DNA of 64,000 nt from Eledone cirrhosa. Taxonomy: Eukaryota. Location of the stretch: NCBI GenBank assembly GCA_964016885.1, contig OZ024753.1, positions 36,952,001 to 37,016,000 on the forward strand, given 5' to 3'. Of this stretch, positions 26,301 through 32,300 are shown piece after piece. A program made the translations under genes and the position numbers. Within the stretch, counting starts at the first letter, position 1; every line of letters starts with the position of its first letter. A model generated the notes under the pieces. It was not told the origin of the DNA and searched no databases. It saw nothing but the letters and a program-made list of their open reading frames with translations.

Positions 26301-29300
26301 TTACACACTATTTCAACTGATTTATTTTCATTGTTTTATAGGCAGATATGTTTATTTATCTTCGTTATTGATGTTGTTGCTGCTGTTGGTGTGTTACGGA
26401 TTGCTTTCGCTTAATTAATCTATACAAACACAAATACTCACATAGATAGATATATGCATACATACATACATATATATATACATATATGTATATATATATG
26501 TATGTATATGTATATATGTATATATGTATATATATAGACATACATATATACATACAACTCCAACATGCATGCATACACATGCAGAAATATATATATATAT
26601 ATATATATATATAACCCATGCCAGCGTAGAAGAACGATGATGATGATATATATACACACACTTATACATATACACATTTACCAGTGCCTCTGCAGCATAT
26701 ATATATATATATGTGTGTGTGTGTGTTTGTGAGTGTGTATGATATATATATACACACAGTCACATGCACAAACACATATACTAGTATATGCACACATACA
26801 TATCTATCTATATATATATATATATATATACACACAAACACGCAGACTCATATATACTTATATATGCACACATACATATCTCTATATACACACACACAAA
26901 CAAACACATATATACACACATATATACACATATATATATCTATCAGTGCCCCCGCAAGACTGCCGTCTAAGAGCTGAAACCATTAAAAGGATGAAAAAAA
27001 TAAAGGTACATACGCAACAAACAATCACACATGAACACGGCTACACACACACAAACAATCACACACATGTGCATGGCTACACACACACCTAACATACACA
27101 AACAATCACACACACCTACAAAACACACACAAACAAACACAGACACCCACGCATGCAACAAAAAAGTATATTATTACTGCTGTTATTGTTTCATTTTAGG
27201 GAAATTGTTTCATTAGGAAATTATTGTTGTTGTTGCATGGGTGTCTGTGTGTGTGTGTGGGGGGGGGGGTGTATGTGTGTATGAATGTATTATTATTATT
27301 ATTATTATTATTATTATTATTATTATTAAATCTCTTTAGATTCTGAGTTCAAATCTAGCTGAGGTTAACTTTGACTTTCATCCTTACGGGGTCAATAAAA
27401 TAAAGCACCAGTAATACACTGGTGTTGATTTAATCGACTTTCCCCTCCCCTTAAATTACTGGCCTTGTGCCTATAGTAGAAATCATTATTATTACTATTA
27501 TAAGGGTGGTGGATTGGCAGAATCGGTAGAGGGTCGGACACCATGCTTAGATGTTTGTGAGTTTAGATGTATGTGAGTGTGTGTGTGTGAGTTTGGATGT
27601 ATGTATGTGTGTTTAGGCATGAATGTGTGTTTAAATGTGTGTATTTAGATGTGTATATGTGTATTTAGATATGTGTATATGTGTGTGAGTGTGTGTTTGG
27701 ATATCTTGCTTTGTCCATATTTTGCGGTTTTTGTTGATTTTCTTAAATTTTGTTGCTTTTAATGTTTTACTTTAAACGGAAATAAGAGAATTAGTGAAAT
27801 GGTAAATTCTGGATTCCAGAATGTTCTTTGTTTTTCTTTTGGCAAGGTGGAGTCATTTCATTTCCTAATGTTAGTCATTATTAGGAAGTGACAGATAGGG
27901 TGGTAAATTGGCAGGATCAGTAGAGCATCGGACAACATGTTTTGTGGCATATAGTTACAGCCCTTTACATTCAGCAAGTTCAAATCTCGCTGGGATTAGC
28001 TTTACCTTTCATCCTTACAGGGTTGATAAAATATATATATCTATTTAATTATATATATATAATTTTATAATTATATATATATACACCTATTACACACACA
28101 TATATATATATATATATATATATATATACATATAATTATAAATAGATAGATATATGCATGTGTGTGTATGTCACAAGGCCTTAGTCAACCCGAGTAGAAG
28201 ACACTTTCCCAAGTTGCCACACACTGCGACTGAATCCCAACCCATGTGGTTGTGAAGTGAACTTCTTCACCACACAACCGTGCCTCCTACACCATGCCTG
28301 CACCCACATTTTGTTGAGCAACAGAGAAAGATGAAGAGAACAAGAGAGAGAGAGAGAGAGAGAGAGAAAAGGGGCAGAACAAATAAAGATAGATAAAAAA
28401 GGAAAGAAAAATGAAAGATGAGATGATCAGTGTTCGAAATACAGTTCAATGATCAGATAACTTACAATATTCTCTCCTTCACTTCTGAGAGTTGTTCTTC
28501 AGAAACAAGATCAACTTTATTGAGAACAATGAGGTCAGCCAATGCAATTTGTCTACCAGCATATGAAATAGAAAAAAATATTATACATATATATATATAT
28601 CATCATCATCAACATTATCGTTTTTGCACCCGCATCCTCAAGTATGATTTGCTAATTTGTTGTGGAACTAACTTTATACTGAAATTGTCCTATGGACTGG
28701 GTGCTCTACTTACTATGGAATATAACCTCCCGAAGTCTTACTACTATATATATATACATATATATATATATATAAAGAATGAATAATAACAGGTAGACAT
28801 CATAAAAAGGTAATTTATTCCGTGTGCTTACAAGTGTTTCCACGGTGGTACTGCAGCCTAGTTATGCTACATGCAAATTCACAAGTGCTTGCAGAACTCA
28901 AATATCCAATGCTGTGACCACTGTTTCCTCAGAGCAGAATGGTAAAATGTACAATGTAAATACCCTTAAGTGGGGTTGTTGGGGAAGATAGAGTAGAAAA
29001 GGAAGAGAGAAAAGTAGGGAAGAGGGAGAGAGAAAGAAAGATATGCAGGGGTTGGAGAAGAAGGAGAGAGTGGCTTGTAGATATCTTAATCAAAATGTTA
29101 TGGTAGGGGTTTTGGTAGGGGTTACCAAAATACCTAATATATATATATATATATATATATGGAATACAATTTTTCCATTTACCAAAGGTTTCACGAAGAC
29201 AGGCGAGCTCAACAGAGACATCTGTAATCGTTCATCAGAAGGAAAAACTTAATATTAATGGAATAATTGTGTTGTGATGTTTATTACATATTTAAATAGT

Positions 29301-32300
29301 TCTGTAGCATACACAGAGTACTCTCCTTTCTTTTACCCTTTCTACGGAAATACTTCCTATATATATATATATATTAGTTATGTAATAAGCAATATAAGAT
29401 AATTATTTCATTTACCAGTGGTTTCTTGAAAGCAAACAGATCGTCAATAACTAATAAGCTCTGTAACCTACATAGAGCACTCTTTTTTCCTGGACTTTTC
29501 CGACGGAATTACTTCATTCACACACACATATATATATATTTTTCCTCCCCTTAGAACCTCACATGTGCTTTCATAACCTGTGAGATTCTGGCACACGAAG
29601 AGCAAAATGCCTGTTGAGAAAGTGATGCCTTGTTCGATCATTATACCAAAAGCTTATTTTTTATAAGCAGACAGTATTATTGATTTAGGTGTTGCAGAAA
29701 CCCAAATATCGGAGTATTCCATCTTCCCCGAGGATCCAGGTAACTATTTCAATCATATCTTATTTTGTTTGACCCGTTTAGCTTGTTCGCTTTTTGGGGT
29801 ATGGTGGTTAATGGTTTCTTAACTATCGTCTCAGTTTGTATGACCATTTTAACTTATGTTTATAGTTCTGGTATCTTCATATCCATGGAGCGCTTGTCTG
29901 CACAATACAGAAGTTGCGTTACGCCAATTTCTACCGCCGAAATGCAATTCTCGCTAAATTTATATTTGTATATATAAATATATATATATAGTGACGAAAC
30001 ATAAGTCAATTGCATGAACTCATAATCCTTTATTTACTGCTATATATATTTCGATGATAGCCATTGAATGGCTATGACCTCATCAGGCAGTTAGTCAGTT
30101 CTTAGATATGCCAGCTCTGTGTTTATAGTGTTGATGGTATCAGAGCCTTGGGACATATATATATTGTGTATCGACCTGTCGATACGCAATAAATATTTTT
30201 CATATGTAAACGAAACTTCCTCGTTTTTTCTATTATATACACTCTGCCTGTGCATAGAGTGCTTGATTTGGTACCGACAACAGTATTTCAACGTACTACT
30301 TATACTATACTATATATATATATATATATATATATAATTCAAGAAAAAAAGTGACATGGTTCGCTATACAATAAGGGCTTTATTCACATTGCTGACAATT
30401 GTTTCTTCGATCTGGTAGGTCTAGAGATTCTATTAATAGCTGTTGTATTAAGGAAGCAGCATTGCTTGCTAGACTTCTTTTTTACGTCCTGTTTTACATA
30501 GTGTGAACATGGATGGATGTTATTAAGAATAATTATGCCAAGTGGAACATAATATAGTATAATATAATATAATATATATTTGGAGTGGAAGAGTGAGTGG
30601 GTGAGAGAGAAAGGTGGAGAAGGAGGAGGTAGAATTAAGGAGGTCAATGTGACAAAGTAGGAGAGAATGAAGGAGTGCGGAAGTGATAGGTAGATAGATA
30701 GATAAATTATATATATATATATATATATATATATATATATATATATATATATATATATATATATATATAATGGAAAATTTGAACAGGAACAAAACAGAGA
30801 GGCAGTACAACGAATGTTTATTAATTTCACGCTCTGGAGAGTGAGGTGGTGGTGGGGAACGACGTTTCGGGCTAAGCCCTTCCTCAGGTGAGAAGTGTGT
30901 GGGAAGAGAGTTCAAAGGGTGTGTAGGGGAGTGGTGGAGAGACATATAGCGAAATATATATATATATATATATATATATATATATATATATATATATATA
31001 TATATATATAAGGATTAAAATACTGGAGCGTGTTAGAGTTAAACACCCTCTTCGTATTATAGAAATGACAGTAAAAGGTATAGCTCAATGCAGTTAAACA
31101 GAGCCGAAAAATTAAGAGAGTAAAACAAAGAAGCCTTTAATACATCAAAAGTTTTTATTAGCCGACAATGTTTCAAACATTGTCGGCTATAAAAACTTTT
31201 GATGTATTAAAGGCTTCTTTGTTTTACTCTCTTAATATATATATATATATATATATGTAGATAAATCTACCAAGAGTTTACGGTAGTGTCCAATCCGTAT
31301 GAAGAACTCAATGTATTCCGGATATCATGGAAAGAAGAGATGTAATGAAAAATCACTTTCGGTGAAAGATAAACGGTATACAGAGTCAAGATAAAATATT
31401 AAATAAATAATGAATAAACAATGAGACAGTTCCTTATATTAAACTTTTTTTGTTTAATATAAGGAACTGTCTCATTGTTTATTCATTATTTATTTAATAT
31501 TTTATATATATATATATATATATATATATAGAGAGAGAGAGAGAGAGAGAGAGAATAAAATACATATAAAGACTGTATATTAAGTTTACTTAAAATTACC
31601 AGATTTCCTCTCTATCTTACTAATGAGAAAGGAAAAGAGTCTATGAGAAATAAGTTTGAAATAAACCTAATTTTATTGAAATGATGACATGGTCGTAGCA
31701 AACAAAATCAATCTAGTTTTATTGAAATACAGCGAATATATAACTAAAAACACAATATTATCACTTCTAGTAACACCACTAGCAACAACAACAACAACAA
31801 CAATACCAATGCTACCAGAATGTTGTTGTTGTTGTTGAATGTACTGATGCTGTTGTAATTATGGTTGTAGAAGTTTATATAACTTGGAGGGTTAGCGAAG
31901 GTGTTGGTGGTGTTGGTGGTGGTGGTGGTGGTGGTGGTGGTGGTGGTGGTGGTGGTGGTGGTGGTGGTGGTGTTGTTGGTGGTGGTGTTGGTGGTGGTGT
32001 TGGTGGTGGTGGTGGTGGTGGTGTTGTTGGTGGTGGTGTTGGTGGTGGTGTTGGTGGTGGTGGTGTTGGTGGTGTTGGTGGTGATGTTGGTGTTGGTGGT
32101 GGTGGTGTTGGTGGTGGTGGTGGTGGTGGTGTTGGTGGTGATGTTGGTGTTGGTGGTGTTGGTGTTGGTGGTGGTGGTGTTGGTGGTGGTGTTGGTGGTG
32201 TTGGTGGTGATGTTGGTGTTGGTGGTGGTGGTGTTGGTGGTGGTGTTGTATTTGGGATTTGAAGGTAATGAAAATGATGGAGGTGGTGTTAGTAGTTATG

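Follow-up and report, generated by a model that had tools for sequence, protein, structure and literature searches.

A chain of hammerhead-bearing repeat ends in a presumed CBWD intron of Eledone cirrhosa: probable debris of Hydra-type Penelope-like elements with a copied middle kilobase

Penelope-like elements (PLEs) of the Hydra clade, of the C-terminal EN+ type with reverse transcriptase and GIY-YIG-type nuclease in one reading frame, were described to carry RWK and DKT motifs, a CxCX5C linker and a region of CxxC and CxH around E and N, to target (TA)n, to bear a hammerhead near the 3' end, in the pLTR, and to leave 5'-truncated copies, partial tandems, inverted 5' copies and tails (PMC8557442; this and all other publications are cited from the parts of their text that were accessible). 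The supplement of this work contains an octopus family, Hydra-1_Obim, with (TA)n preference and a canonical hammerhead, so that neither the clade nor the (TA)n target nor the ribozyme is new. For the type I hammerheads of metazoan PLEs a short palindromic helix III, a short helix I, which has 2 bp in a D. virilis variant, and a larger helix II were reported (PMC4209133). Many of these features recur in the repeat families represented in a 64,000-nucleotide stretch of the 3.0-Gb genome assembly of Eledone cirrhosa (contig OZ024753.1; G000:C13:36952001-37016000), referred to as the window in the following. At about 28.7–31.5 kb of the window, TA runs cut the DNA into the pieces Z and A–K (Table 1), and this chain harbors seven hammerhead motifs. 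The chain is most probably a pile of truncated 3' ends of high-copy repeats, mostly of Hydra-type PLEs, plus a middle kilobase copied from the neighborhood, suggesting that it is likely debris rather than a working ribozyme array.

Eight coding exons were mapped by translation on the minus strand (at about 39.4k, 38.5k, 38.0k, 36.9k, 35.1k, 34.5k, 33.75k and 28.55k), which places the chain in coding intron 7 and makes minus the strand of the pre-mRNA. We take the gene to be CBWD, a name given from its motifs rather than from a database match. The original prediction counted about nine mostly unrelated inserts in this intron. There are in fact 11 repeat pieces between the TA tracts, and their unrelatedness is incomplete since B and C are sister families, while H and the 3' part of 'G' are non-repeat DNA. 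Its view of the inserts as mobile, high-copy and TA-flanked was borne out, as ten of the pieces are dispersed repeats from families of hundreds to thousands of candidates. Genome-wide numbers are first-look candidates with identities taken from 40 scored candidates each, and amount to 2298 for A (best others 98–99%), 1357 for B (best other 88%), 3913 for D (best other 96%), 2321 for F, 1196 for G, 1244 for I (best others 98–99%), 2549 for J (best others 98–99%) and 646 for K (best others 99–100%). C was recognized as a dispersed repeat and sister of B by comparison with fetched loci. For E, an ordinary DNA search missed even E itself, probably because its words are too common, and copies were counted by an exact 23-mer (2767 matches in the genome; control 0). 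Z has just two other matches in the fetched loci. Moreover, of 31 library stubs within the 264 kb surrounding the window, the chain included, 29 touch a TA tract compared to 23% of random placements. TA follows immediately after the short 3' end in 8/13 copies of A, 7/10 of G, 7/14 of E, 13/13 of I and 6/11 of B, and many others continue into a tail. The family of D, with locus L153 as an example, is a TA-associated, tandem-forming repeat of ~615 bp with PLE-like truncation and no hammerhead core.

Table 1. Pieces of the chain, hammerhead positions, copied segments and bordering exons (window coordinates)
Feature	Position	Strand	Description
CBWD coding exon 8	28465..28553	-	From translation; downstream intron border; ends approximate
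Z	28628..28744	+	Older repeat piece, end abuts first TA tract; 81–88% matches in L138 and L161
A	28775..29136	-	Young Hydra-type PLE 3' end with full hammerhead; short inverted tail stub at 5' end
A hammerhead	core 28932	-	Predicted cut 28829/28828; 85-nt stem II region
B	29161..29357	-	PLE-type stub with two arms: on minus the hammerhead arm with core 29238 and predicted cut 29180/29179, on plus the tail arm
C	29375..29527		Sister family of B; hammerhead 3' half (minus) fused to tail arm (plus)
D	29540..29968	+	Truncated; full repeat ~615 bp, tandem-forming, no CTGANGA
Copied segment 1 (E, TA, F, TA, 3' half of G)	29979..30426	-	Inverted copy of G000:C13:37056754-37057278
E	29991..30154	-	PLE-type 3' end; best-formed hammerhead, core 30086, predicted cut 30041/30040
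F	30165..30310	+	PLE-type tail, cut just past GAAAC box; 13-nt inverted stub
G	30337..30426	-	Hydra-type PLE hammerhead 3' half; cut within long stem II at template switch
Chimeric junction of the two copied segments	30421..30426		2-nt exact microhomology in longer imperfect match
Copied segment 2 (non-repeat G'+H, TA, I)	30421..30954	+	Direct copy of G000:C13:37073245-37073759
I	30770..30953	-	Hydra-type PLE 3' end; minimal hammerhead, core 30887, 2-bp stem I, ACGT stem III
J	31011..31234	-	Fold-back stub of Hydra-type PLE, junction at GAAA box; long tail arm minus, short arm plus
K	31257..31502	-	Fold-back stub of Hydra-type PLE, cut downstream of hammerhead; 54-bp perfect arms
CBWD coding exon 7	33725..33755	-	Upstream intron border; ends approximate

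Judged from the motifs of adjoining open reading frames (ORFs), the families A, G, I, J and K are probably Hydra-clade PLEs, and E is tentatively placed there as well. Upstream of A, in a partial tandem of 3180-nt period, a frame of 786 codons is open in L057:2494-4851 minus (G000:C1), which contains the IYRDDG motif of the reverse transcriptase (RT), a C-terminal YIG..RW..H region as well as RWK, DKT, CNCHLPERC and CRLC..E..N..E..CNH. With this uninterrupted frame, family A looks recently active. The RWK motif reads RWKA in A and I and RWRA in K, the N-termini of E, G and J not being recovered; the change from DKG to DKT is seen as ADKT in two of four A loci, with ADNT in the other two, and as SDKT in I and K. 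The CxCX5C linker is present in A, I, J, K and the E-linked ORFs and matched in part in G, and the CxxC..E..N region in A, G, I, J, K and the E-linked ORFs. ORF parts with Hydra-type motifs lie 1.1–1.4 kb upstream of G (two loci), ~1.9 kb upstream of J (three loci), ~4 kb upstream of K (two loci) and, in tandem, directly downstream of I (one locus). Pfam gave no hits for the ORF of family A at E<=0.1; its Atlas neighbors carry HTH_animal, GIY-YIG or RVT_1, which serves as a lead only. A search with the GIY-YIG family (150 matches, of which 30 loci were fetched) led to other PLE clades, and a single locus held a chain family, J, inverted and unlinked. The fetched loci L013-L042 hold many degraded C-terminal GIY-YIG ORFs of other PLE clades, with 10595 first-look candidates in the genome.

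Compared to the published Hydra clade, the young families here number at least five, with candidate copies in the hundreds to thousands, whereas one octopus family is given in the accessible text of PMC8557442. The units measure 3.18 kb for A and have a period of ~7.2 kb for K, while those described there are generally below 3 kb, a length that is typical rather than absolute, and the tails are ~60–170 nt long instead of 30–40 nt. Finally, the stem II regions of A, G and K span 83–115 nt between the core boxes, with complementary stems, and are thereby far longer than those of the Hydra hammerheads in the accessible supplement table. The K family (L099-L107) has a stem II region of 115 nt, an 8-bp stem I and a GUU triplet. 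For the G family (L089-L097) the region is 83 nt long, and CCGATGA, not CTGATGA, is the prevailing form (4/10 against just 2/10 copies). A literature search on long stem II found no account for PLEs, which is weak evidence of novelty.

The original prediction described four full type I hammerhead cores and three 3' halves, all of them on minus, and the positions and the strand stand. CTGANGA boxes lie on minus at 28932, 29238, 30086 and 30887 and none on plus within 28776-31505; each of the four is followed by GAAA and UH. The 3' halves are found on minus at 29425-29413, 30405-30394 and 31174-31164, and with the exons on minus all seven motifs are sense to the CBWD pre-mRNA in coding intron 7. 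The designation as full cores holds for A, B and E, in which the boxes and three stems, with stem I open, are present, and is marginal for I with its 2-bp stem I and zero-loop stem III. In A the boxes are 85 nt apart, and B has just two contiguous stem I pairs. The hammerhead of E combines a 5-bp stem I with the palindromic stem III ATATATAT. An AATAAA after several of the motifs was also reported; there are five such sites on minus (28819, 30034, 30384, 30822 and 31159), to be read against an AT-rich background giving 8 on minus and 4 on plus in 2.86 kb.

A relaxed hammerhead descriptor finds two sites compared to a shuffle mean of 0.018, and none of 500 shuffles reaches two, showing that the cores are beyond chance; a strict descriptor finds core E only, and 9/500 shuffles reach one. 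With the Rfam covariance models, which the original prediction had named as a check, no hammerhead family appeared among 41 matches at E<=10, these being only sub-gathering matches of microRNA-type hairpins. Long stems II and minimal stems III lie outside such models. Fuller copies of A, B, C, E, G, I, J and K carry cores with stems. Moreover, a library-free scan found 70 cores in a 664-kb and 43 in a 200-kb stretch (reversed controls 1 and 0), i.e., about one per 10 kb, showing that hammerhead cores are background in the sampled DNA. Further cores in the window lie at 8983 (minus), 9119 (plus), 6135 (minus) and 58250 (plus), in other TA-associated repeats. The motifs of the chain are very probably cargo of PLE tails.

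It was proposed originally that cooperative cleavage of the motifs releases small linear or circular RNAs or tunes the splicing of CBWD, and the sense orientation of all seven motifs, the AATAAA after five of them and the predicted formation of stems I and II in E (stem I pair probability 0.80–0.87 in the context of the insert) are compatible with such a ribozyme array. For A, B and I the predicted probability of stem I pairs is about 0, which leaves E as the only core predicted to form this stem. In B, stem I is weakened to two pairs compared to seven in family copies, and its 3' strand is predicted to pair with the element's own inverted arm. The four stem III sequences, ACACTTGT, ACCTTTGGT, ATATATAT and ACGT, differ, so that same-family dimer partners are missing except for a poor pairing of B and C, and hammerheads of this kind were described to need same-family dimers (PMC4209133, PMC7229834). 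Furthermore, PLE hammerheads in the literature show weak cleavage or depend on the protein of the element (PMC11167929, PMC4209133). Part of the chain is missing from contigs of another sample (S1, runs X1-X3), which is probably another individual as it differs from the assembly at flank sites, and whose contigs show presence, not absence. Taken together with the commonness of cores, this makes an array that releases RNAs or tunes splicing very improbable. The hammerheads are predicted to ride along passively in the CBWD pre-mRNA and to cleave it little, if at all. The chain shares the predicted dimer dependence and low activity with the hammerheads of metazoan PLEs (PMC4209133), and differs in that the ribozymes are stranded in truncated stubs of separate families, without a full same-family partner in the chain.

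Similarly, the pieces resemble animal non-LTR (long terminal repeat) retrozymes as short non-coding pieces with type I hammerheads and a link to PLEs (PMC7229834; bioRxiv 10.64898/2026.07.22.740005). Their definition calls for a tandemly repeated unit in which two or more consecutive copies bear a hammerhead. In contrast, no unit is tandemly repeated within 28.7–31.5 kb, and the pieces are the ends of longer, mostly protein-coding elements, for which reason the retrozyme reading was dropped. A retrozyme-like tandem array of a 310-bp unit with one type I hammerhead core per unit was seen elsewhere in the assembly (G000:C3:150113756-150118968, in L257); it consists of two head-to-head halves, its right end lies in (TA)n, and the unit also occurs near 150074744-150076157.

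The anatomy of the pieces fits the inverted truncated copies and tails of published PLEs. Many copies end either at a short 3' end or at a longer tail, and often an inverted truncated copy lies 5'. A, B, C, F, J and K are two-armed inserts of this kind, and the hairpins of J and K are fold-back junctions. The co-orientation noted originally applies to the hammerheads only; pieces Z, D and F run along plus, and in each of A, B, C, F, J and K one arm lies on plus and one on minus. For an anole PLE, reverse transcription was shown to start at two sites and AT-rich DNA to be cut on both strands (PMC11167929). In the chain, the GIY-YIG nuclease of an element might cut (TA)n; reverse transcription could then begin at one end or at both, from two RNA start sites, and would yield a short arm and a tail arm head to head. 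As TA would be left on both sides of each insertion, the target would be renewed, and the pieces likely landed one after another in one TA tract. Repeated targeting of a single TA tract, as suggested originally, fits for Z, A, B, C, D, J and K, with best other matches between ~84% and 100%, and is not supported for E, F, G and I, which are copies of two neighboring loci. Had all pieces been joined at once by serial jumps between RNA templates from different families, this would account for the co-oriented hammerheads and for pieces that are adjacent and never nested. It is hardly credible and was rejected, as the ages differ (best other matches ~84% for Z and 88% for B compared to 99–100% for A, J and K), three pieces (Z, D and F) are on plus, and a two-armed insertion anatomy of its own is seen in each of A, B, C, J and K. 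Linear series of unrelated, non-nested elements with microsatellite in between are also known as SaTar arrays from guayule and rice (PMC5907723). Those consist of non-autonomous plant Mutator-like element (MULE) DNA transposons, whereas the chain is made of animal retrotransposon stubs and was in part copied from neighbors.

The copied part is the middle kilobase. With TA tracts collapsed, 29979-30430 matches contig C13 at window coordinates 105278-104754 in inverted orientation (99% over 434 nt), and 30421-30954 matches it at 121245-121759 in direct orientation (97% over 491 nt). Both matches span TA tracts; source 1 is 75 kb away, source 2 is 91 kb away, and the two are 16 kb apart. F is identical to its source in 146/146 positions, its next best copy reaching 96%, and of the ~280 nt of non-repeat G'+H, the part 30421-30571 has source 2 as its sole non-self match among 40 scored candidates. 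The block contributed three of the seven hammerhead motifs. Past the junction, source 1 extends into a complete G hammerhead, while source 2 continues into additional I sequence as well as non-repeat DNA, showing that the window copy is the derived one. Within 664 kb, no source spanning a TA junction turned up for A, B, C, D, J or K, and no other long-range copy across TA tracts among 475 tracts with complex flanks in 864 kb, suggesting that the copying process is not frequent. A third 200-kb sample (C14), satellite-like in appearance, had no TA tracts and was left out. Other duplicated pairs near TA tracts turned out to be adjacent tracts, or tandem or inverted duplications 1.8–8.4 kb apart, one of them beside an N gap. 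A 1.7-kb direct duplication flanking a 200-N gap on G000:C13, near window coordinate 220038-223584, is probably an assembly overlap.

The middle kilobase was likely pasted in by template switching during the repair of a break in the TA tract. Break-filling synthesis would have entered the TA tract of source 1, copied ~450 non-collapsed bases (E, F and half of G), changed at the microhomology to source 2 as template for G', H and I, and finally returned to the TA tract. This resembles templated insertions (PMC5120786) and the combination of TA-repeat fragility with microhomology-mediated end joining (PMC13645644) in its two local segments, one of them inverted, in the microhomology joint and in the TA tract. 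It differs in that those are human clinical and tumor events, whereas here ~1 kb is concerned, in an invertebrate assembly, with PLE-flanking TA tracts as both entry points.

Alternatively, the middle kilobase may have been reverse-transcribed by a PLE enzyme from two read-through RNAs, with one jump in the structured stem II of G. Synthesis would then begin exactly at the normal 3' end of E and end by 5' truncation in I, both segments are PLE-sense with the switch within an 83-nt hairpin, and read-through templates and jumps were proposed for Penelope (PMC3846280). The TA tract after E accounts for the start equally well, and the microhomology at the junction is as in replicative repair (PMC5120786). 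Moreover, sources within 92 kb of the recipient and 16 kb apart in a 3.0-Gb genome are not expected of diffusible RNA, and this proximity favors DNA-templated switching, so that the RNA route appears rather unlikely. A version in which a Hydra-type PLE RT filled the TA break from two chromatin-bound read-through RNAs, jumping in the hammerhead hairpin and carrying ~280 nt of host DNA, is likewise doubtful.

Finally, the block could be a chimera of the assembly or library. The junction is missing from the S1 contigs, and no sequencing record examined spans the chain. An S1 contig (X1, X2) continues unbroken through the junction point into source 2 sequence, S1 shows the source allele only at 30614, and no S1 contig bridges the junction at 30421-30426, where contigs cannot show absence. 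The depth of the flanking exons in S1 is near 0, and an S1 joint at 28673-29353 was set aside as resting on 22 letters. On the other hand, S1 is probably another individual, as mentioned, over 871 nt the copy and its sources differ by 7 substitutions and 5 gap runs, each side having private changes, and the closest N gap lies ~100 kb beyond source 2. A chimera is therefore improbable. The copied block is polymorphic, private or, less likely, an artefact.

Several observations weigh against a reading of the chain as sequentially landed PLE debris with a kilobase pasted in by repair. The link of E to the Hydra clade is weak, with an ORF 1.35 kb upstream at a single locus and a microsatellite in between, and no ORF was reached in the flanks of 23 loci of B or C and of 9 loci of D. 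If independent, facing one strand has a probability of p=0.125 for four out of four and p=0.016 for seven out of seven motifs; the independence behind the latter value is limited by E and G, two of the seven, which came within one copied segment. The folding analysis considers equilibrium and leaves out co-transcriptional and protein-assisted folding. Both copied segments are PLE-sense on minus, as predicted by RNA templating. Moreover, among eight tested differences between copy and sources the family base is in the window at five and in the source at two, with one split, so that the copy does not descend simply from the source haplotype in the assembly; this fits divergence on both sides or a different source haplotype. 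The clusters in 664 kb comprise 21 singles, 4 pairs, 2 triples and one of five, while the chain has ten, and none of 91 anchored loci has more than two extra library stubs. The chain is thereby an outlier, in counts that are biased toward its locus by a stub library built from the chain itself. Without the copied block, seven pieces of mixed age still form a hotspot.

Elsewhere in the window, an RRM-like exon at 58981 (plus) and an open frame of 385 codons at 50027 (minus) mark neighboring genes, and an 80-bp unit is repeated seven times at 46508-47068 with 94% match.

As a summary, the value of the chain for ribozyme discovery is small, as the clade, the TA targeting and the hammerheads have been published and the sampled DNA has a core roughly every 10 kb; a literature search for hammerhead ribozymes in octopus found no paper on such chains. 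However, several young and abundant Hydra-type families, one of them with an open full-length frame, are usable to study (TA)n targeting and two-armed insertion. The stem II regions of 83–115 nt in three families are missed by Rfam and short descriptors, suggesting that ribozyme counts in such genomes are probably too low. Furthermore, microsatellite-separated arrays can grow by copying of neighboring clusters, which inflates apparent insertion hotspots. If the copy was RNA-templated, this would be a new local activity of PLE reverse transcriptases, and copying of chromatin-bound RNAs by the PLE RT, if true, would mean that a telomerase-related enzyme shuffles DNA locally between TA tracts with RNA as template.

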